From a virus (lineage: Duplodnaviria; Heunggongvirae; Uroviricota; Caudoviricetes): a DNA stretch of 47,262 nt. Position 1 is the first letter of the stretch, and every line of letters begins with the position of its first letter. Positions 13,693 through 44,477 of the stretch are shown here, piece by piece. The stretch lies in the IMG/VR virus record IMGVR_UViG_2718217795_000004; one strand, written 5' to 3'. The position numbers were made by a program, and so were the translations under genes. The notes beneath the pieces were generated by a model that saw nothing but the letters and a program-made list of their open reading frames with translations, had not been told where the DNA came from and did no database searches.

Positions 13693-14462
13693 CTACACAC
13701 ACTGCTCCTGAAAATACTGGTCATCCAGTGCAAAGATCACTGCTTCAAATTCATCGCGCTCAATCAATACCGGATGAGTGGCTAAATATTCATTTATCTC
13801 TGTCAGAGATAAAGGCAAAGGCACCCCAGCCATTCCAGCATAACGTCGGGCACGGGATATTACCGAATAGGCGTACAACAACTCCTTAAGCACCGGGTCT
13901 ATTTCTGGTTCCGGTATCGGTGGCAACCTGAGTTTTTCTCGCTTCCATCTTGCCTTTTCCCCCCTTTCTCCCCCGAACTCCGATAACCACCGCTGGGCAG
14001 CTATGGCTTTTTTATCGTATCCTGCTTCTGCTGCTCTTTACCCTGGGCGATGCTGGCTGCTTCTGCAAGGATCTGCCAGTACAACTCTGGATTCTGCTTA
14101 AGCAGCGCGATCCCTCGTTCTGCCGTATATTCCAGTGCAACCTCAACACCATTAACCAGTTCACCAACCCCTTTCCAGTCTTTCAGCAGATAACGAGCGG
14201 CATTATCAATGAGTAAATCATCAACAGAATCCACCTCGGAAACCTTTGAAATATCAAACTCCTTCGTTCCGACGTGCAAACTGGCATCCATTTTCTCAAT
14301 GTGGCGACGGATTAATGCATTACGGGAGCGATACTGATCGTTATCGCTGCTTGCCACCAACAGTTTTAACCCGTCTACAGGTTTTAAGTCCTTCATTGGC
14401 GTAAACCAGCGTTCTCCACCAATGATAATTTTCTGATTAAGAATAAACATCCATAACCTCAT
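13693..14462 (-). CDS. tail assembly chaperone G-T (product of programmed -1 frameshift)
   Basis: The -1 frame is open from the slippery site at 14007-14013 through 13693; arrangement matches the conserved G/GT frameshift of long-tailed phages. Confidence 0.65.
14001..14462 (-). CDS. G: tail assembly chaperone G
   Basis: 153-aa ORF between the major tail gene and the tape measure gene; ends two codons after an A_AAA_AAG slippery heptamer. Confidence 0.75.
   Translation of the reverse strand: MRLWMFILNQKIIIGGERWFTPMKDLKPVDGLKLLVASSDNDQYRSRNALIRRHIEKMDASLHVGTKEFDISKVSEVDSVDDLLIDNAARYLLKDWKGVGELVNGVEVALEYTAERGIALLKQNPELYWQILAEAASIAQGKEQQKQDTIKKP
14007..14013 (-). promoter_or_regulatory. -1 ribosomal frameshift slippery heptamer A_AAA_AAG
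   Basis: Read directly: ...ACG ATA AAA AAG CCA TAG in the G frame, with the -1 frame continuing open into T. Confidence 0.7.
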
Positions 14463-21882: not shown

Positions 21883-23193
21883 TTAAATCCGAAGTGATGT
21901 GACTCTTCCGGTCGGTTTGACAATAGGGAATTGCTTAACGATGAAATAACCTCCGGCATCATTCGGGTGATCATTGCCAGATTTTTTATCAGGCTCCCCC
22001 TTATCATCCCAGACCTGTTGCTCCAGAGATTCGGCATATACCGGACAACGCTTCACATTAACTTTATAGCGACGCTCACCATTGGCATTGCAGAACATTG
22101 CATTCATTGAGTTAACGCGATCTTTTACTGGCGGGTTCGAGCTGTTCACCACAACGTTAAAACCTGCCTGCTTAAGCTGGGCTATATCCGTCGTACTTGC
22201 GTTACTTGATTTTCTGGAATCTCCGGAAGCATCTGGATAAATATAAATCTCCCTCACTTTCCGGTAATCATGCCCGTCATACGGCCAGAAGCGTTCTTTA
22301 ATGAGGCGGATCATATCCGGCGTATCGTAGGCATTGATGATTTCAGTTACCGCACATGGAAGCCCCAAACGCAGCACATGGACGATTCCCGCCATCTTTC
22401 CAACGTTAAAATCCATCCCAATATAAATCGGCTCCCCTGGCTGCTCCACTTCTTCGCAATTATTCAGTTTCCGGTCAAACTGATGGTAAACAGTACCACT
22501 TGTCAGGTTAGTAAACCGTCCTAGAAGATAGGCTTTAATCAACTCTGGAGGGTATGATTCAAGAAGTGAAGGAATGTAATCTGCTGGCAGGTTCTTTTCA
22601 TTATCGAAAGTAGATGCCTGCACCAGACCATACAGTGAGGCCAGCTCTGTTTTTTCACGCACGGCTTTAACAAACTGCTCGTAGACAAATTTGAATCCTT
22701 CCGGCGTGGTTGTAACGTCAATACCGTTGCGAAGTCCATCAATCTTATAACGCATACGCGCAATTATCTTGCGCCACGCCGTTCTGGCTTTTTCCTTCGG
22801 CAAAATATCCAGTTCATCCACCAGCGCATTACCAATTTTGAAACCGACGATCGTTTGTGGCTTCTCCATCGATCTGCAGATAGTGGTTCCCCGATACTGG
22901 CGTCCGTAATAAAAGTGAACCTCTTTATTTCCCTCATTAATTTTTACGTTCAATCCCCAGTCAGCAGCAACTTCTTCCACTGTAGGGTAAAAAATATCGC
23001 GAATTTGGGGATACGTTGGCGCAAAATATCCCTGATTTATACCTGGATGCTCCCAAATCCCCTTGCATATGCCGCCACACCCAACCCATGTTTTGCCCGA
23101 GCCAAAACCAGCAATATAGGCTTTAAATTTATGGGGCATTGAAAGAAATCGCGCCTGAGGCACATTAAGCGTCGGAGAGATCATCTTCATCAC
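21883..23193 (-). CDS. terminase large subunit
   Basis: 436 aa; Walker A-like GFGSGKT near the N-terminus; position upstream of portal. Confidence 0.9.
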   Translation of the reverse strand: MMKMISPTLNVPQARFLSMPHKFKAYIAGFGSGKTWVGCGGICKGIWEHPGINQGYFAPTYPQIRDIFYPTVEEVAADWGLNVKINEGNKEVHFYYGRQYRGTTICRSMEKPQTIVGFKIGNALVDELDILPKEKARTAWRKIIARMRYKIDGLRNGIDVTTTPEGFKFVYEQFVKAVREKTELASLYGLVQASTFDNEKNLPADYIPSLLESYPPELIKAYLLGRFTNLTSGTVYHQFDRKLNNCEEVEQPGEPIYIGMDFNVGKMAGIVHVLRLGLPCAVTEIINAYDTPDMIRLIKERFWPYDGHDYRKVREIYIYPDASGDSRKSSNASTTDIAQLKQAGFNVVVNSSNPPVKDRVNSMNAMFCNANGERRYKVNVKRCPVYAESLEQQVWDDKGEPDKKSGNDHPNDAGGYFIVKQFPIVKPTGRVTSLRI

Positions 23194-24259
23194 TCCTTAA
23201 TCTGGCATCAACCACATTAATATTGATCGCCACAGGCTGGGGATGTTCATTATCCTCCACCGTTTCGATCTCTTTGCGCAGCTTCTGGTTTTCTATTCTG
23301 CGCCGTTCAATTTCCAGTTCCTGTAGCCGCTTATCTGCACATAATGCCCCGCCAGCAGAAAGCAAACGCAACAATTCACGCCGGGCGGCAGCCTTATCCT
23401 CCAGCAGGATCTCAACACCGTATTTTCCGAGCTTTGACCCTGCATATAATTGCCGCGCATCCCCATCAAGCAGTGTGGTATCAGCCATATAAAGCTGTCC
23501 CGTTCCCTCACCGCAGCACTTCGGGCAATCCGGATTGGGTATGGCGTTATCAACAAAGCCGAGGCCTCCATATTCCGGCTCGGGTTTACCATCTCTGGAG
23601 GCCTGTGCCGCAGCCTTATCGAATTCTGCAATATCACGCCACTGGTAGAGATGATTCTCGCCCCAGCAATAACGGCAGTTAACACGGCGAAATTGTGCCA
23701 ACTGATTGGGGTCGGCCTGGACAATGGCCATCAACTGGCTCACCAGTAAATCCAGGTCTGCGGTATGGCGTTTCTGGTACTGATTGCGGAAGTAGCTGAT
23801 AGCACGATAAACCCTGGCATTTCTAAGCATACGGCTGGCGTTGCTGTTAGCTGTCGCACCTTGCCCCTCATAACCAGCCAGTCGGTATGCCTCTGTCGGC
23901 TTTTTCCCCTGAGCAACCAACATGGCGAATTTTGCCTGCTGGTCAGAAATACCGAATTCATCGGGGCAGAACGAAATTTCTTCCGTGTCCCCCTCAATCA
24001 GGAGTGCATCGGATACAGCCTTTTTTTTCTGAGATTTTCCGTTCTGCCTTTGCGCAGTCTGCGCAGTTTTTTTTCGCGCACTTTTTTGCGCAGTTTTGCG
24101 CATTTCTTTCTGCGCATTTTTCGGAGTTTTTTTGATGTAACGACGGGCTGTTGCGTAGTTCAGTCCCCTTGCTTCACACCATGCCACCGGAGATATACCG
24201 GAGCGGGTGTATTCAGCAATATACTCCTGCTGCAACGCCCCCCAGTCCGGTCTGCTCAT
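23165..24259 (-). CDS. terminase small subunit (with N-terminal HTH extension)
   Basis: 364 aa; Terminase_2-like motif (KFAMLVAQGKKPTEAYRLAGYEG..ANSNASRMLRNARV); overlaps the large subunit start. Confidence 0.7.
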   Translation of the reverse strand: MSRPDWGALQQEYIAEYTRSGISPVAWCEARGLNYATARRYIKKTPKNAQKEMRKTAQKSARKKTAQTAQRQNGKSQKKKAVSDALLIEGDTEEISFCPDEFGISDQQAKFAMLVAQGKKPTEAYRLAGYEGQGATANSNASRMLRNARVYRAISYFRNQYQKRHTADLDLLVSQLMAIVQADPNQLAQFRRVNCRYCWGENHLYQWRDIAEFDKAAAQASRDGKPEPEYGGLGFVDNAIPNPDCPKCCGEGTGQLYMADTTLLDGDARQLYAGSKLGKYGVEILLEDKAAARRELLRLLSAGGALCADKRLQELEIERRRIENQKLRKEIETVEDNEHPQPVAININVVDARLRSDEDDLSDA

Positions 24260-24262
24260 CAG

Positions 24263-24514
24263 TTAGTCCTGATTTTTATCCACCCTGAGTAGTTCGCGCA
24301 GAGCAAAGGCATCCCCTTTTCTGGCAAGCTTAAACAATGCCGCTCGTAACTCGGCTTCACCTTTCGCTCTGCCCTTACGGATGGCCGCATAAAAATCTGT
24401 CATTGCTTCCCGATTTTCTTTCAGTCGGTTCAGATCAACATCCAGAACGTCAGCGATTTGTTGTGCAGTCATCCGGCACGCTGCCAGAGACTCGACTTTC
24501 GAATACGGAATCAT
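24263..24514 (-). CDS. small HTH-like DNA-binding protein (83 aa)
   Basis: Helix-turn-helix-like segment (MTAQQIADVLDVDLNRLKENR); immediately upstream of the terminase small subunit. Confidence 0.45.
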   Translation of the reverse strand: MIPYSKVESLAACRMTAQQIADVLDVDLNRLKENREAMTDFYAAIRKGRAKGEAELRAALFKLARKGDAFALRELLRVDKNQD

Positions 24515-25382
24515 TTGTCACCCCCATTGATATGCAGGGTGTCTTCTTCCTGTATTTTTCGTGAAGGATTTTTACTGCAGCGTTGTTCCAGGTGACCTGA
24601 TGGTGAATGCGTTTATGGCTGGCACCCATCAGTGAGATTTTTACGCACGACGGCGCATACATGACGGAGTAAAAACTTTTAACGTAGGTTCCGTAATCCA
24701 GATACAGCTCGGTCATTCCGCCGCTGTTTTTCTGCGTCTGTTTCTGCCCTAACTGGACAGCACCGATCGTCATAAACAATTCACCACAGCGACCGAGATT
24801 CGTGTACGTATTCACATCCTCGTTAATGCGCCCCATGAATGAGAACGGTCGATCAACCGAACAGATAAAGCTGTTCATTGCCTTGCGTTTCACCCACGAA
24901 GCATGGCCGCCATTGTCACCAAGAAAATCCCCGCCCTGCGACATAGCGATGGAAAGCGCGGGTATTGATTCGTAATACGCCAGCATTTCAGAAAGGATCG
25001 CATCCAGTTTCCTTATCGGGAAATAGGCCTGGTCATAGTTGCGATCCACCCGAAACTGGAACTCGTGATAATCATCATCGAGCTGAATGAAGTATTTACA
25101 CCCGACCAGTTTTGCCAGGTCGAAACAGGCATTACGGGCGTAAAAAATTGAGCGGCGGTCACCAAAATTATCGGCTTCGTCAAAACGACTGGCAATATCG
25201 GCTTTGGAAAATACCAGCACCTGTTCACCAAATTCAGCCATGTACTGATGCCGTGTCTTATCTTCATCATCAACAACGATAAAAATTTTCCCGGTATAGC
25301 CAGCACGACGCAACGTCCGGTAAGTCAGAACTTTGTCCGGTCGCCCGTGAGTCAGAATAAAGGCGCAAAAATCATCACGCAT
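24450..25382 (-). CDS. GT-A-fold-like protein (putative nucleotide-sugar transferase; ydaY-position)
   Basis: 310 aa; N-terminal hydrophobic strand (CAFILTHGRP), VVDDED near residue 37 and a DDD (DxD-like) motif near residue 102, spacing typical of GT-A folds; overlaps the ParB-like gene stop. Confidence 0.55.
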   Translation of the reverse strand: MRDDFCAFILTHGRPDKVLTYRTLRRAGYTGKIFIVVDDEDKTRHQYMAEFGEQVLVFSKADIASRFDEADNFGDRRSIFYARNACFDLAKLVGCKYFIQLDDDYHEFQFRVDRNYDQAYFPIRKLDAILSEMLAYYESIPALSIAMSQGGDFLGDNGGHASWVKRKAMNSFICSVDRPFSFMGRINEDVNTYTNLGRCGELFMTIGAVQLGQKQTQKNSGGMTELYLDYGTYVKSFYSVMYAPSCVKISLMGASHKRIHHQVTWNNAAVKILHEKYRKKTPCISMGVTNDSVFESRVSGSVPDDCTTNR

Positions 25383-26163
25383 ATTCCTCCTCCCCGCTAT
25401 GCATGATCGCCACCATGCGCTGCGTCATTCGGACAAATCCATTTTCAATAGCCTGCTGATAATCAATGATCACCAGCGCCGACTCCTCGAAAAGGCACTG
25501 AATTTCAGCGGGGGCATGAGCGTAATAGTCCGCAATTCTGCTGAAATTAAACACCGTGTGACGTTCTGCCGCACACAGGAGGAATTTCTCAATATCAGGA
25601 TCAAGGGACGCCGAACGTATCCGGCTGATCAGCTCCTGAGTTTTCGTATCGTCGTACAGTTCACTGATATCCGGTTTACCGCCCGACGGCTCATAAACAG
25701 GCGTATCAATTTTCGTCGTATACGGCTCCTCCTTATTTCCTGTACCGGGCAAAACATCCGTCAACAGTTCATCAATTTCTGTCGGGCCGAAGCCTGTCAG
25801 GGAGACATCAAAATCAGCATTGATTAGGTCCGACAGCTCCATCCGCAATAGATCTTCATCCCAGCCAGCATTCATCGGTAGGCGATTATCTGCCAGGCGG
25901 TACGCCTTTTTCTGCTCATCCGTCAGGCCAGACAGAACAATGACCGGAACAGAATCCATTTTGAGCATTTCAGCCGCCATAACACGACCGTGACCCGCAA
26001 TAATTTCGCCCTTTTCGTCAATCAGCACCGGATTAGTCCAGCCGAATTGCTTAATACTTTCTACCAGTTGTGCCACCTGCTCAGTACTGTGCGTCCTGGC
26101 GTTGTGCGCATACGGTGACAATTCTTGTAATGGGCGATAGACTATCTTTAATTTCTCGCTCAT
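25375..26163 (-). CDS. ParB-like nuclease-domain protein (ynaK-position)
   Basis: 262 aa; N-terminal ParB/Srx-like segment (ELSPYAHNARTHSTEQVAQLVESIKQFGWTNPVLIDEKGEIIAGHGRVMAA). Confidence 0.75.
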   Translation of the reverse strand: MSEKLKIVYRPLQELSPYAHNARTHSTEQVAQLVESIKQFGWTNPVLIDEKGEIIAGHGRVMAAEMLKMDSVPVIVLSGLTDEQKKAYRLADNRLPMNAGWDEDLLRMELSDLINADFDVSLTGFGPTEIDELLTDVLPGTGNKEEPYTTKIDTPVYEPSGGKPDISELYDDTKTQELISRIRSASLDPDIEKFLLCAAERHTVFNFSRIADYYAHAPAEIQCLFEESALVIIDYQQAIENGFVRMTQRMVAIMHSGEEEYA

Positions 26164-26180: not shown

Positions 26181-26214
26181 ATAAAACGCACCCCAGCAGC
26201 CAGTGCTACTGGGG
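26181..26214 (-). terminator. terminator-like hairpin downstream of trkG
   Basis: Minus-strand 9-bp stem (one mismatch) followed by a short U-run. Confidence 0.35.
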
Positions 26215-26300: not shown

Positions 26301-27776
26301 TTAGGAGCGCCAAAAAAAACCTGAAAACAATATAATAACAGGATAAATTTCAAGGCGACCAAGAATCATAGCTATGCACATTAAATATTTTGCAATGTCA
26401 TTAAGCACTCCGAATGACGATGCAGTAGCCCCAAAACCTAATCCCATATTATTAATACATGCAGCCACTGTTGCAAATGATGTAAGAAAATCATATCCCA
26501 TACCATTTAACACCAGTATAAAAAACACCGTGAAGAGAGTATAAAGAAAAAAGAAACTCCATACAGACCTCATTACACGATCTGTAACTATCTTCCCTCC
26601 TACATTTACACTCAACAACGCTCTGGGATGAGAAAGCTGATTTATCTCGTGTTTGCTTTGTTTGAAAAGTATAAGAAATCGAAGTGACTTAATTCCACCA
26701 CAAGTTGAACCTATACATCCCCCAAAGAAACTTGACAACAGCAAAAACACTATCGTGTGCGTGGGCCAGTTTGCATAATCCTGCGTAGCTAAACCATTAT
26801 CAGTGAGCATGGAGCTGGCAAGAAAAAACGAATGAATAAAACTTCCATGCAAGTCATACATACCTATATGCCAGACCTGGAAAGAGGTAACAATGATCAC
26901 CCCTAAGGCTATTAACAGAAAGAAACGAAGTTCAATATCTCTGATTAAAGGTTTTATCGTTTTCCTGCTAATAACAATATACCAAAGAGTGAAGTTGAAA
27001 GCCGATAGCAGGGAAAAAGAACCAGCCACCAGCTCAACCAAATAGTTATTAAAATATCCGATACTCTCGCTATGAGTTGAGAAACCACCAAGCGAAACTG
27101 TGGAAATCCCGTGACAAATAGCATCAAACAAAGGCATTCCTGCAAGTCTATAACAGACAATACAAGCAATACCTAATAAAGAATAAGTTATCCACAGTGT
27201 CCGTGACGTATCGGCCAGGCGGGGAGTGAGTTTGTCATCCTTAAATGGCCCCGGCATTTCTGACTGATAAAGCTTTGCACCACCAATACCCAATAATGGC
27301 AATACAGCAACCGCCAGAACAATAACTCCTAAACCACCTATAAAATTTAACTGTGACCGATAGTACAAATATGCCCGAGGTAATGAACTAACATCATCAA
27401 TTACAGTTGCTCCTGTTGTTGTTATTCCAGAAACCCCTTCAAACAGAGCATCAATGAACGTTAAATTAAGTTCTGAGTCAATCCATAAAGGGAATGCACT
27501 AATAACAGAAAACAAAATCCAAAACATTACAATTATAATAAACCCATCACGGGTACGTAATTGAATGCCAGATTTCTTAGTTGTATACCACGCTCCGCCA
27601 CCAATGCAAAAAAATATAACGAAAGTTATAAAGAAAACGAATAGGCTTTTTTCTTTATAAAACAATGCTACAACCATTGGTGGCAACATTGAAAGACTAT
27701 AGAGCCAAACCAGGAACCCACACATATGAGTAACAACTCTTACATGAGATGTATTCATATCTAAATATTCTTTCAA
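26301..27776 (-). CDS. trkG: TrkH/TrkG-family potassium uptake protein
   Basis: 491 aa polytopic membrane protein with repeated GxG-containing pore-like segments; visibly AT-rich gene; matches the known Rac cargo gene trkG. Confidence 0.9.
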   Translation of the reverse strand: MKEYLDMNTSHVRVVTHMCGFLVWLYSLSMLPPMVVALFYKEKSLFVFFITFVIFFCIGGGAWYTTKKSGIQLRTRDGFIIIVMFWILFSVISAFPLWIDSELNLTFIDALFEGVSGITTTGATVIDDVSSLPRAYLYYRSQLNFIGGLGVIVLAVAVLPLLGIGGAKLYQSEMPGPFKDDKLTPRLADTSRTLWITYSLLGIACIVCYRLAGMPLFDAICHGISTVSLGGFSTHSESIGYFNNYLVELVAGSFSLLSAFNFTLWYIVISRKTIKPLIRDIELRFFLLIALGVIIVTSFQVWHIGMYDLHGSFIHSFFLASSMLTDNGLATQDYANWPTHTIVFLLLSSFFGGCIGSTCGGIKSLRFLILFKQSKHEINQLSHPRALLSVNVGGKIVTDRVMRSVWSFFFLYTLFTVFFILVLNGMGYDFLTSFATVAACINNMGLGFGATASSFGVLNDIAKYLMCIAMILGRLEIYPVIILFSGFFWRS

Positions 27777-41501: not shown

Positions 41502-41777
41502 ATGATTACCAATTATGAAACCACTGTTGTAACTACCGATGACATTGTTCATGAGGTGAATCTGGAAGGAAAGCGCATTGGCTACGTAATTAAAACAGAA
41601 AATAAAGAAACCCCATTCACTGTGGTTGATATCGATGGTCCATCAGGCAACGTAAAAACACTTGATGAAGGTGTCACAAAAATGAGCCTGGTTCACATCG
41701 GAAAGAATCTGCCCGCAGAAAAAAAAGCCGGATTTCTGGCAACTCTGATCGCAATGAAATTAAACGGTGAAATCTGA
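41502..41777 (+). CDS. racC: RacC-like protein (91 aa)
   Basis: ATG with AAGGAG SD; directly upstream of recE as in Rac. Confidence 0.6.
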   Translation: MITNYETTVVTTDDIVHEVNLEGKRIGYVIKTENKETPFTVVDIDGPSGNVKTLDEGVTKMSLVHIGKNLPAEKKAGFLATLIAMKLNGEI

Positions 41778-41876
41778 AAAAAAGAAAGCCTGCACTGTGT
41801 GCAGGCCTGAGTGAAGAACCTGGGACATTTATTCATCACTCGCAGTAATTTTAATCTGAGTTGAGGTTAAAAAACA

Positions 41877-44477
41877 ATGAGCACAAAACCACTCTTCCTT
41901 TTACGGAAAGCGAAAAAATCATCCGGTGAGCCTGACGTCGTCCTGTGGGCAAGCAACGATTTTGAATCGACCTGTGCCACTCTGGACTACCTGATCGTTA
42001 AGTCAGGTAAAAAACTGAGCAGCTATTTTAAAGCTGTTGCCACGAATTTTCCTGTCGTTAATGACCTGCCCGCTGAAGGTGAGATCGATTTTACCTGGAG
42101 TGAACGCTATCAACTCAGCAAAGACTCCATGACATGGGAACTAAAACCGGGAGCAGCACCAGACAACGCTCACTATCAAGGCAATACCAACGTCAACGGC
42201 GAAGACATGACTGAGATTGAGGAGAATATGCTACTCCCAATTTCTGGCCAGGAACTGCCCATTCGTTGGCTTGCTCAACACGGCAGCGAAAAACCGGTAA
42301 CGCACGTTTCACGCGACGGACTCCAGGCATTACACATTGCTCGGGCTGAAGAACTACCGGCTGTTACTGCCCTGGCTGTTTCCCACAAAACCAGCCTGCT
42401 CGACCCGCTGGAAATTCGCGATCTCCACAAACTGGTTCGTGACACTGACAAAGTTTTCCCTAATCCTGGTAATTCAAACCTGGGACTGATAACTGCTTTT
42501 TTCGAAGCATACCTGAACGCTGACTACACCGATCGAGGACTGCTGACAAAAGAGTGGATGAAGGGTAATCGTGTTTCACACATCACTCGCACGGCTTCCG
42601 GTGCTAATGCTGGCGGCGGAAACCTCACCGATCGCGGCGAAGGTTTCGTACACGATCTGACGTCACTGGCGCGCGACGTAGCCACTGGCGTACTGGCCCG
42701 TTCAATGGATCTGGACATCTATAACCTTCATCCGGCACACGCTAAACGCATTGAGGAAATTATCGCTGAAAATAAACCGCCCTTTTCTGTTTTCCGCGAC
42801 AAATTCATCACCATGCCTGGCGGGCTGGATTATTCCCGCGCCATCGTGGTTGCGTCCGTAAAAGAAGCACCAATTGGGATCGAGGTCATCCCCGCGCACG
42901 TCACTGAATATCTGAACAAAGTACTGACTGAAACCGATCATGCCAACCCTGATCCGGAAATCGTGGATATTGCCTGCGGTCGCTCCTCTGCCCCGATGCC
43001 GCAGCGAGTAACAGAAGAAGGAAAACAGGATGATGAAGAAAAACCGCAACCATCTGGAACAACGGCAGTTGAACAGGGAGAGGCTGAAACAATGGAACCG
43101 GACGCAACTGAACATCATCAGGACACGCAGCCGCTGGATGCTCAGTCACAGGTAAATTCTGTTGATGCGAAATATCAGGAACTGCGGGCAGAACTCCATG
43201 AAGCCCGGAAAAACATTCCATCAAAAAATCCTGTCGATGCCGATAAATTGCTTGCTGCATCACGTGGTGAATTTGTTGACGGAATTAGCGACCCGAACGA
43301 TCCGAAATGGGTAAAGGGGATCCAGACTCGCGATTGTGTGTACCAGAACCAGCCAGAAACGGAAAAAACCAGACCAGATATGAATCAACCTGAGCCAGTA
43401 GTGCAACAGGAACCGGAAATAGCCTGCAATGCCTGCGGCCAGACTGGCGGGGATAACTGCCCTGACTGTGGTGCGGTGATGGGCGACGCAACATACCAGG
43501 AAACATTCGATGAAGAGAGTCAGGTTGAAGCTAAGGAAAATGATCCGGAGGAAATGGAAGGCGCTGAACATCCGCACAATGAGAATGCTGGCAGCGATCC
43601 GCATCGCGATTGCAGTGATGAAACTGGCGAAGTCGCAGATCCCGTAATCGTAGAAGACATAGAGCCAGGTATTTATTACGGAATTTCGAATGAGAATTAC
43701 CACGCGGGTCCCGGTGTCAGTAAGTCTCAGCTCGATGACATTGCTGATACTCCGGCACTATATTTGTGGCGTAAAAATGCCCCCGTGGACACCACAAAGA
43801 CAAAAACGCTCGATTTAGGAACCGCTTTCCACTGCCGGGTACTTGAACCGGAAGAATTCAGTAACCGCTTTATCGTAGCACCTGAATTTAACCGCCGTAC
43901 AAACGCCGGAAAAGAAGAAGAGAAAGCGTTTCTGATGGAATGCGCAAGCACAGGAAAAACGGTTATCACTGCGGAAGAAGGCCGGAAAATTGAACTCATG
44001 TATCAAAGCGTTATGGCTTTGCCGCTGGGGCAATGGCTTGTTGAAAGCGCCGGACACGCTGAATCATCAATTTACTGGGAAGATCCTGAAACAGGAATTT
44101 TGTGTCGGTGCCGTCCGGACAAAATTATCCCTGAATTTCACTGGATCATGGACGTGAAAACTACGGCGGATATTCAACGATTCAAAACCGCTTATTACGA
44201 CTACCGCTATCACGTTCAGGATGCATTCTACAGTGACGGTTATGAAGCACAGTTTGGAGTGCAGCCAACTTTCGTTTTTCTGGTTGCCAGCACAACTATT
44301 GAATGCGGACGTTATCCGGTTGAAATTTTCATGATGGGCGAAGAAGCAAAACTGGCAGGTCAACAGGAATATCACCGCAATCTGCGAACCCTGTCTGACT
44401 GCCTGAATACCGATGAATGGCCAGCTATTAAGACATTATCACTGCCCCGCTGGGCTAAGGAATATGCAAATGACTAA
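41877..44477 (+). CDS. recE: exonuclease VIII RecE
   Basis: 866 aa, the size of Rac RecE; C-terminal nuclease-domain region; followed by an overlapping recT. Confidence 0.9.

Follow-up and report, generated by a model that had tools for sequence, protein, structure and literature searches.

What does a predicted glycosyltransferase do directly ahead of the packaging genes of a prophage, in overlap with a ParB-like gene? The question is raised by two minus-strand genes in the IMG/VR virus record IMGVR_UViG_2718217795_000004, a stretch of 47,262 nt (hereafter the window) that holds a Rac-like lambdoid prophage of Escherichia coli, apparently complete from int, xis and recET through the tail fibres. 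The upstream gene (25375–26163, minus strand) is the full-length form of ynaK and encodes a partner protein of 262 amino acids (aa); the downstream gene (24450–25382, minus strand) encodes a glycosyltransferase (GT) of 310 aa. Both open reading frames (ORFs) are intact and overlap by 8 nt, exactly as described in the initial annotation, which was made from the sequence alone, took the products for a ParB/Srx-like protein and a GT-A-like enzyme, and suggested a DNA-modification module. The comparisons described below place the enzyme in the TAGT family and show that its constant companion, in bacteria and in a haloarchaeal virus, is the C-terminal domain of the partner. It is proposed, tentatively and with somewhat less than an even chance, that the two proteins form a two-subunit late enzyme which glycosylates phage DNA on a non-canonical acceptor.

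The glycosyltransferase and its partner protein

Profile and model comparisons identify the 310-aa protein as a GT-A glycosyltransferase of the TAGT family, and it is predicted to be active. It matches Pfam PF20691 (TAGT) over profile positions 4–205 of 205 with 121.6 bits (cut-off 27.5; E 5.5e-35) and PHROG 842 at 2.7e-103; RefSeq names it 'GREB1-related protein' or hypothetical. The Pfam catalytic domain spans residues 8–222 (24717–25361, minus strand), with HGR at residue 12, VVDDED at residues 36–41 (25260–25277), a DXD-type DDD at residues 102–104 (25071–25079) and NED at residues 187–189 (24816–24824). VVDDED and DDD had already been marked at these places in the initial annotation. In the AlphaFold2 (AF2) model, residues 1–150 form a confident, Rossmann-like part (predicted local distance difference test score, pLDDT, >90) and residues 217–310 are of low confidence. 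Foldseek comparison of this model with the PDB returned GT-A enzymes as all top matches (ColGalT1, SpsA, SunS/ThuS and glycogenin; probability ~1.0), which bears out the earlier suggestion of a sugar transferase. R14, D102–D104, K167 and D189 are invariant in an alignment of 12 sequences drawn from enterobacteria, from Lactobacillus, Nocardia, Porphyromonas and Vibrio phages and from the halovirus HHTV-2, and the invariance of catalytic residues across domains of life argues for an active enzyme. The spacing of D38/D41, D102–104 and D189 mirrors what we take to be the arrangement of D39, D98/D99 and D191 in the inverting GT2 enzyme SpsA. The prophage protein would probably be an inverting enzyme of this GT2/SpsA type, in which the metal and the nucleotide-sugar would be bound by DDD, with the Asp of NED as the base. 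The GT family comprises at least 8000 clusters at 90% identity, and no relative of the GT subfamily came up when the PDB was searched by sequence and by profile.

Beyond the Pfam domain lies a subfamily-specific C-terminal extension (residues 223–285; 24528–24716, minus strand) with the motifs GGMTxLY, GTYVKSFY and RxHH. G222, T224, Y227, K235, P244, S245, H260 and H261 are invariant, and the extension is not modelled by AF2 in the absence of the partner (pLDDT <40). Homologues stop at about 285–290 aa; the last 25 residues (24453–24527, minus strand) are a non-conserved tail specific to the E. coli protein, which overlaps an 83-aa ORF at 24263–24514.

The partner consists of a ParB N-domain, an acidic linker, the motif YTxK(I/V)xxPxYEP and a helical C-terminal domain (C-domain) of about 110 aa, in this order. 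Partners of E. coli, of Lactobacillus, Nocardia and Porphyromonas phages and of HHTV-2 are homologous from end to end, and the match to PHROG 620 (3.2e-90) is likewise full length. With profile matches of this kind for both products, neither of the two genes is an accidental ORF. The ParB/Srx fold that had been recognised initially (residues 1–135; 25759–26163, minus strand) is supported by Pfam PF02195 ParB_N (29.3 bits, cut-off 26.3) and by Foldseek matches of the N-domain to CDP-bound ParB, Noc, PadC, KorB, sulfiredoxin (Srx) and SerK (probability 1.0). Its P-motif GxxR reads GHGR at residues 57–60 (25984–25995), and R60 is kept in 109 of 123 domain-bearing sequences. The N-domain closely resembles the N-terminal module of ParB–DNA methyltransferase fusions (PADLOC MTase_II, 1e-38; phrog_498, 3.7e-51), with which it also shares the distribution over phages and prophages. 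In those fusions ParB is covalently joined to an enzyme acting on canonical bases, whereas in the prophage system the GT is a separate protein that ParB would reach by way of a docking-type C-domain, and fusion is rare (P0390, described below).

Like Spo0J, Noc and KorB, the partner has the N-terminal ParB fold with the GxxR P-motif; unlike them, it has no helix-turn-helix (HTH) detectable by Pfam and no ParB dimerisation domain. Against the canonical ParB model TIGR00180 it reaches 38.1 bits, below the cut-off of 58.45, and only the N-domain aligns. The protein is acidic (isoelectric point, pI, 4.59; net charge −21), as is its family (median pI 4.5, net charge −24). No ParA is annotated in the prophage; no search for parS was made. 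The 'DNA-binding' partner of the initial annotation thus finds no support in the missing HTH, the TIGR00180 score or the charge, and a role as partition protein of a ParABS system was rejected on the same grounds together with the lack of an annotated ParA. GenBank and RefSeq phage records label such partners 'ParB-like partition protein/nuclease' or 'chromosome (plasmid) partitioning protein', which is contradicted by context; since the partner is not a partition ParB, the partitioning labels are misleading. According to published work, no sequence rule predicts the nucleoside triphosphate (NTP) ligand of ParB-fold domains.

The linear motif, YTTKIDTPVYEP in the window (residues 148–159; 25687–25722, minus strand), is near-invariant: among 137 distinct partners Y148 is kept in 136, T/S149 in 134, P155 in 137 and Y157 in 136. 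The C-domain (residues 140–262; 25378–25746, minus strand) is acidic and all-helical, and in the same set R201, Y214, E226 and D234 are present in all 137 and H202 in 135. In the AF2 model of the partner the motif lies in a linker predicted to be disordered (pLDDT <50 over residues 137–155), and the C-domain is helical at modest to low confidence. Sequence and profile searches found neither a Pfam family nor a PDB relative for the C-domain. A sub-threshold match to PF23887 (mycobacteriophage L5 gene 47-like; E 0.008–0.07) recurs in L005, L076, P0308 and the prophage partner, on the conserved segment FLxxAAxRHxxF (residues ~200–222, about 25500–25560), and may reflect a remote relationship of the C-domain. 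An exhaustive phmmer search with the C-domain over 1.84 billion representatives gave 1192 proteins at E ≤ 1e-3, with the domain at the extreme C-terminus in 150 of 150 among the matches listed; most of these proteins have 240–310 aa (ParB plus C-domain) and a subset has 128–200 aa (C-domain alone). On sequence grounds we propose a previously undescribed family without an existing name, the TAGT-partner C-terminal domain. The 262-aa partner has the terminal domain, the motif, the R-H...Y...E...D residues and a TAGT gene directly downstream by which the family would be recognised.

At the gene junction (25375–25395, minus strand) the stop codon of the partner gene and the start codon of the GT gene overlap, and the strong Shine-Dalgarno sequence GGAGGAGG lies within the last codons of the partner gene, which indicates translational coupling. 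Overlap is also the rule at partner/GT junctions in other loci, where the gap ranges from −160 to +13 nt.

Linkage, distribution and genomic setting

The initial annotation had treated the pair as a functional unit, and its co-occurrence proves near absolute in both directions. From the GT side, the ORF upstream of the GT gene overlaps it, lies on the same strand and matches the hidden Markov model (HMM) of the C-domain in all 87 loci (80 from IMG/VR, one RefSeq genome and six phage records). The viral scan with the GT alignment gave mostly near-identical E. coli prophages, and diversity came from the scan with the C-domain alignment. From the C-domain side, 76 of 78 diverse IMG/VR loci have a TAGT gene as the next gene downstream; of the two remaining, one is at a contig edge and one has a TAGT 1 kb away. 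With one genome per species (n = 80), a TAGT adjoins the C-domain gene at 72 loci and stands 0.8 kb off at one, and the other seven are at contig ends, which gives adjacency in 72 of 73 testable loci. Pooled over about 235 loci from bacteria and a haloarchaeal virus, the linkage is found in essentially every testable locus, and these loci hold at least 56 GT clusters below 65% identity. The hosts include Clostridia, Negativicutes, Bacteroidota, Actinobacteriota, Verrucomicrobiota, Kiritimatiellia and all proteobacterial classes, as well as Melainabacteria, Chlorobi, Acidobacteria, the candidate phyla radiation (CPR) and Cloacimonadota, in addition to the haloarchaeal virus.

The ParB domain does not share this constancy. 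It is missing in at least 10 lineages, where the partner is a C-domain alone with ample upstream sequence and no separate ParB gene, and a few other partners have non-ParB N-domains. The linker motif is kept at the N-terminus of the C-domain-only partners. In a recent survey, 'solitary' TAGTs were counted in 288 of 753 phage genomes; upstream of the 'solitary' TAGT of 191-kb T4-like Vibrio phages, a 139-aa gene without annotated function turns out to be the C-domain alone. The linkage data and the lineages without ParB define the conserved unit as the C-domain plus the TAGT subfamily, with ParB frequent but dispensable, and the constant element of the partner is therefore not its ParB domain. 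In a fusion protein of 534 aa found on three contigs (P0390), a divergent TAGT, a ParB N-domain and a C-domain are joined, followed by a second TAGT gene and then by the gene of the large terminase subunit (TerL). Linkage, coupling and fusion together suggest that the GT and the partner very probably form a complex, and the absolute linkage with the fusion argues for dependence of the GT on its partner. The C-domain and the YTxK..PxYEP motif would dock on or activate the GT, perhaps at its C-terminal extension, and the ParB/Srx N-domain would be an optional add-on, probably a nucleotide-dependent switch or a targeting module.

In E. coli the 2.1-kb region was found in 1609 of 5426 complete genomes, and 866 of the 1609 carry at least 80% of it. 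The module is thus often decayed in this species, with under 80% of the region left in nearly half of the positive genomes. In K-12 a deletion has removed the GT gene together with the terminase and head genes, and only an 87-aa ParB stub is left (locus L175:3378-3981). The initial annotation named ynaK and ydaY as the truncated K-12 equivalents of the pair; this is right for ynaK, the truncated partner, and wrong for ydaY, which is a tail-region gene and not the GT. In intact prophages ydaY lies between the tail tube and tape measure genes. RefSeq 'protein YdaY' (window 14001–14462; L007:9802-10161) occupies the usual site of tail assembly chaperones and has no Pfam hit.

The flanks of the pair, a trkG moron on one side and small HTH/terminase genes on the other, are as first described. 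The trkG-like K+ transporter moron (26301–27776) lies upstream of the partner gene; it is low in GC (0.377; GC at third codon positions, GC3, 0.32) and is inserted between the lysis genes and the partner gene. Its own strong terminator-like hairpin (26191–26214, minus strand; 10-bp stem, 7 GC pairs, T-run) stands 3' of the moron and ends 28 nt ahead of the partner start codon. The gene pair has a GC of 0.48–0.50 and a GC3 of 0.54, like the phage backbone, and downstream of the hairpin it would be read together with the late/packaging genes. Between the GT gene and the gene of the small terminase subunit (TerS) lies the small HTH-like ORF of 83 aa (24263–24514, minus strand; ribosome-binding site GGGGGTG). 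It matches only an internal, TerS-like segment of the small-terminase PHROG phrog_309 (8.3e-23), is started by RefSeq at Met15 (69 aa), and may be a split-off HTH module of TerS. The terminase genes follow at 21883–24259 on the minus strand (small subunit 23165–24259, large subunit 21883–23193; Terminase_2, Terminase_6N, Terminase_6C; phrog_51). The small terminase is unusually long (364 aa); its N-terminal HTH region is weakly similar to IS66 TnpA (NCBIfam, 4e-4), and its C-terminal part forms a PHROG of its own, phrog_29114.

The slot directly before the terminase, noted initially for the prophage, recurs elsewhere. The module lies immediately before the terminase in the fusion-bearing contig, a Porphyromonas phage, the Nocardia phage NTR1 and the Lactobacillus phages phi jlb1 and c5; in c5 no other gene stands between cos and the pair. 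Among 31 cluster representatives with a detected TerL, 28 have its start no more than 1.5 kb downstream, usually with one TerS-sized ORF between, and such terminase distances are lower bounds since phmmer-based detection of TerL is incomplete (it missed the TerL of L172, which was found by Pfam). TerL abuts the module without a TerS-sized ORF in Nocardia NTR1, L158 and L163. Two Pfam censuses, one of all ORFs around 9 loci and one, for a list of 37 further loci, of the two genes that flank the module on either side, returned mostly terminase and portal families, with HNH, RusA/NinG, VRR-NUC and N6_N4 methyltransferases. The module lies away from the terminase in HHTV-2, pv27 and L174 and is absent from many related lambdoid phages. 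In the T4-like Vibrio phage pv27 it stands among replication genes (primase, helicase, exonuclease), far from structural genes. The phage pv27, in which the partner of the module is a C-domain alone, also encodes a PurZ-type '2-aminooxy adenylosuccinate synthetase' (L259:30930-32042, record 80930-82042) as well as an HD phosphohydrolase and an RfaE-II-like nucleotidyltransferase (L259:39401-39928 and 41506-41970); since PurZ is a marker of 2-aminoadenine (Z) genomes, pv27 may combine Z-DNA with the GT module.

Accessory genes accompany the module in some lineages, and none of them occurs in the window. A second, divergent TAGT is found in about a dozen lineages, in tandem after the partner and usually with the divergent one first and the canonical one next (L099, L108, L112, L124, L130, L136, L146, L159, L165, L168 and L090-L092; fused in P0390 of L088 and L089), which suggests stepwise building of a di-saccharide. 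A radical SAM gene of ~310–335 aa, typically directly after the GT, accounts for 7 of the 129 flanking ORFs in the second census. Such genes (L172:1262-2227, L097:8216-9208, L141:8210-9148, L112:8981-9937, L124:8971-9981 and L142:8245-9201) occur in diverse, mostly metagenome-derived phages. Their products have no NCBIfam equivalog, and generic MoaA, tungsten-cofactor-maturase, twitch/SPASM and viperin core matches fall far below the cut-offs; assignment as QueE or viperin was rejected on this generic core similarity. The radical SAM protein may make or tailor the acceptor or the sugar. Other optional neighbours are Amidoligase_2, UDP-galactopyranose mutase, cytidylyltransferase-like proteins and NAD-dependent epimerase/GDP-mannose dehydratase (including L166:7966-8880 and L151:3154-4251). 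Taken together, the second TAGTs, sugar-nucleotide enzymes, radical SAM proteins and amidoligase suggest glycan diversification, as for DNA glycans under selection by host defence.

Acceptors and precedents

The acceptors of characterised TAGT-family enzymes are glucosyl-5-hydroxymethylcytosine (glucosyl-5hmC) for T2/T6, 5hmC for phage GT-A enzymes, 5-hydroxymethyluracil (5hmU) for the base-J glucosyltransferase JGT and protein Thr/Ser for GREB1. No gene for a dioxygenase, a hydroxymethylase or a DNA methyltransferase appears in the RefSeq annotation of this prophage, and Pfam scans of ten window proteins that are unannotated or of the domain-of-unknown-function (DUF) type show no TET/JBP or other 5-hydroxymethyl-pyrimidine enzyme. 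Searches by phmmer with T6 gp42 and E. coli ThyA covered about 250 loci and at E ≤ 10 found nothing in the window, among the 15,376 ORFs from earlier loci or at the 80 loci taken from genomes. As a positive control, the same scan detects the thymidylate synthase of Vibrio phage pv27, so that the method works; this gene adjoins DHFR, as expected of a true thymidylate synthase. The complete genomes of phage c5 (31.8 kb) and pv27 (191 kb) contain no hydroxymethylase. TET_JBP and Thymidylat_synt are not among the families listed in the two censuses, some singleton families lying outside these lists, with no dedicated TET/JBP HMM search made over all loci. As no source of 5hmC or 5hmU was found, an acceptor in DNA would have to differ from those known for the TAGT family.

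The nearest characterised relatives come from T-even phages. The T2/T6 TAGT acts on DNA, and the T6 enzyme has been assigned a GT-A fold by AlphaFold3 (AF3) modelling. Like this beta-glucosyl-HMC-alpha-glucosyltransferase, from which RefSeq and PHROG take the family name, the prophage GT is a phage-encoded, apparently soluble member of PF20691, the T6 enzyme scoring 37.2 bits and the prophage GT 121.6. Direct similarity between the two is nevertheless undetectable (hhalign probability 0.1; no match of the subfamily HMM to T6), and with the profile-profile comparison negative the link to the characterised enzyme runs through the Pfam model only. The T6 TAGT extends a glucose already set on 5hmC by the alpha-GT, and its gene adjoins those of dCMP hydroxymethylase and the alpha-GT; the prophage window, in contrast, has no hydroxymethylase and no primary GT of the alpha-GT kind. 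The T6 enzyme, in turn, has neither a partner protein nor the C-terminal extension, and neither C-domain nor ParB adjoins its gene. Given the lack of T6-type acceptor genes and of direct similarity, the RefSeq label 'beta-glucosyl-HMC-alpha-glucosyltransferase' on temperate-phage genes is an over-annotation.

A motif set R...DDD...ED(Y/F) has been described for DNA-glycosylating phage GT-A enzymes and JGT (Pyle et al., preprint 2023; Cell Rep 2024). The prophage GT shares with JGT and with the phage GT-A enzymes associated with 5mYOX or ThyS both the fold and this set, and the latter enzymes also have comparable neighbours, including ParB-like proteins, terminase, second GTs and sugar epimerases. 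They use 5hmC or 5hmU from a neighbouring dioxygenase or hydroxymethylase, whereas none was found near the prophage module, and no dedicated partner domain has been described for them. About 65% of 25,000 GT contigs have no 5mYOX or ThyS nearby (Pyle et al.), and these were set aside. The animal protein GREB1 belongs to the same Pfam family as well; it is a large eukaryotic protein that O-GlcNAcylates the oestrogen receptor and has no ParB/C-domain partner, and it is relevant only as evidence that the TAGT family can take protein acceptors.

For a partner of the activator type, the best mechanistic precedent is ParB176, an HTH-less ParB-fold protein that is encoded beside the post-replicative phage T-dioxygenase 5mYOX176 and required for the activity of this enzyme on double-stranded DNA; both its N- and its C-terminal domains are needed, and mutations at the nucleotide site are tolerated (O'Toole et al., PNAS 2026). 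The prophage partner likewise combines a ParB N-domain with an HTH-less C-terminal domain and is encoded beside its putative client. The client of ParB176, however, is an iron/2-oxoglutarate (Fe/2OG) dioxygenase and not a GT, and GT-associated dioxygenases form a ParB-independent subclass (O'Toole et al., PNAS 2026). To judge from the published description, the two systems are further set apart by the ParB N-domain, which is dispensable in the prophage system, and by the constant and distinct C-domain. Earlier work had already pointed to ParB genes close to phage DNA-modification genes and to GTs close to ParB and terminase, and later papers credit Iyer et al. (2013) with the proposal that modification enzymes are guided by ParB at the time of packaging. 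For the ParB-CTPase fold, a survey of 2025 records methyltransferase and DUF fusions and no GT partner. In an overexpression screen of 2026, the 87-aa ParB stub of K-12 reportedly raised the minimal inhibitory concentrations of six antibiotics; in the literature, no paper was found that characterises ynaK beyond this screen of the truncated stub, and none on the C-domain or on its obligate pairing with TAGT. The system can thus be described as a form of the DNA-glycosyltransferase family built from two components, with a partner domain not described before.

Candidate functions and their meaning

Under the proposal of a late DNA-glycosylating enzyme, the GT and its partner would be translated together at the head of the late/packaging operon, a nucleotide-sugar would most likely donate its sugar to phage DNA that has already been replicated, either just ahead of packaging or while it proceeds, and the DNA glycan would protect against host nucleases. 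The family precedent, the methyltransferase-type ParB module, the DNA-metabolism and packaging neighbours and the glycan-diversifying accessories appear to favour DNA, and the GTs are mildly basic (median pI 8.7). The putative DNA-modification module of the initial annotation agrees in this respect with the published ParB hypothesis and with the ParB-dependent T-dioxygenase of 2026. A narrower form, in which the sugar would be attached, without a 5-hydroxymethyl-pyrimidine, directly to a canonical base or another position of DNA with the acceptor site of the GT completed by the partner domain, is judged unlikely. Several points weigh against DNA as the target. The strong acidity of the partner and its lack of any recognisable DNA-binding domain are two of them. 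Nothing that would supply a hydroxyl acceptor in DNA (5hmC/5hmU) was found in the window, in c5, in pv27 or near the loci, the absence of TET/JBP resting on annotation, the window Pfam scans and the two partial censuses, with no dedicated HMM run. We know of no precedent for glycosylation of unmodified DNA. In sequence comparison, similarity to the T6 enzyme is undetectable save via the Pfam model. GREB1, a member of the family, glycosylates protein, and GT contigs without 5mYOX or ThyS were judged 'less likely' to represent DNA hypermodification by the authors of the largest GT survey.

The GREB1 precedent, with O-GlcNAcylation of ER-alpha, leads to protein O-glycosylation as the main alternative, possible though rather doubtful. 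The target would be a Tyr or Thr of the YTxK..PxYEP motif of the GT's own partner, or a packaging or virion protein of the adjacent genes. Glycogenin self-glucosylates a Tyr. It is one of the top structural neighbours, among which the peptide and protein GTs SunS/ThuS and ColGalT1 also stand, and Y148, T/S149 and Y157 of the partner are almost invariant within a segment predicted to be disordered. The acidity of the partner, its lack of a DNA-binding domain and the lack of a DNA acceptor source would fit as well, and in mycobacteriophages GT genes lie among structural genes and have been proposed to modify the capsid. On the other hand, the ParB N-domain is of the DNA-methyltransferase-associated type, the neighbours are DNA-metabolism genes, and in pv27 the module lies among replication genes and distant from structural ones. 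A dedicated substrate protein known only for being glycosylated would bring the phage no obvious benefit, and the invariant R201/H202/Y214/E226/D234 resembles a functional site more than a passive substrate. The missing DNA acceptor would also be compatible with a target among nucleotides, RNA or small molecules, such as a host immune signal, the base of a tRNA or a component of the nucleotide pool, which the GT would glycosylate while the ParB/Srx domain bound an NTP-like ligand; such a counter-defence or metabolic role is regarded as improbable. ParB-fold domains bind CTP, ATP or GTP, some are enzymes on small substrates (Srx, SerK), and the accompanying radical SAM proteins are weakly similar to NTP enzymes of the MoaA/viperin type; these similarities, however, lie far below every family cut-off. 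At least 10 lineages moreover do without the ParB domain, free nucleotides are not the substrate of any characterised family member, and related dioxygenases are inactive on nucleosides and nucleotides. No defence-system model was matched, save for the match of the partner's ParB N-domain to the ParB module of a methyltransferase model. A defence system proper was rejected, as PADLOC assigns none, leaves the GT unmatched and recognises in the partner the ParB module of the MTase_II model only.

The position directly upstream of the terminase genes in most lineages, the abutting TerL genes without a TerS-sized ORF and the place right after cos in c5 would suit a packaging accessory, in which the pair would aid or replace the small terminase and the GT fold would be structural or regulatory. 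This is nonetheless quite improbable, for the catalytic residues appear invariant across domains of life in the sequences compared, most loci have a TerS-sized ORF that separates the module from TerL, and a TerS of 364 aa is encoded in the window itself; many related lambdoid phages do without the module, it lies elsewhere in HHTV-2, pv27 and L174, and tandem GTs with sugar-tailoring genes make sense only with real glycosylation. Decaying prophage cargo without a present function in this strain is the least probable of all and seems very hard to credit. In its favour, numerous copies in E. coli are truncated or fused to other genes, ynaK is reduced to a pseudogene in strain CFSAN061763 and to a stub in K-12, and homologues include many proteins in which a deletion has joined ynaK or the GT to pieces of Lom, tail-fibre or terminase proteins. 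In the window, by contrast, both ORFs are intact with all conserved motifs, the coupling junction and a backbone-like GC3, nothing else seems to be missing from the prophage between integrase and tail fibres, and the family is under strong purifying selection across phyla. A function at the O-antigen or cell surface of the gtr type was rejected by inference only, since both proteins look soluble and the setting is a late operon with DNA-metabolism neighbours.

Whichever function applies, the comparison corrects three annotations, namely 'beta-glucosyl-HMC-alpha-glucosyltransferase', 'chromosome (plasmid) partitioning protein' and the equivalence with ydaY. Phage DNA glycosylation has so far been understood only as decoration of 5hmC and 5hmU, and a large share of the phage GTs without such companions may form one coherent and very widespread two-component system. 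If direct attachment of the sugar to a canonical base or another DNA position is correct, many temperate phages would carry an undescribed DNA modification, including the lambdoid prophages of about one third of E. coli genomes, and the same modification would occur in phages of gut Clostridia, Bacteroidota and haloarchaea. A new DNA modification would bear on restriction evasion, sequencing artefacts and enzymatic tools for DNA labelling. If the target is instead a protein, the pair would be a dedicated phage protein-glycosylation system coupled to packaging, which would also be new.

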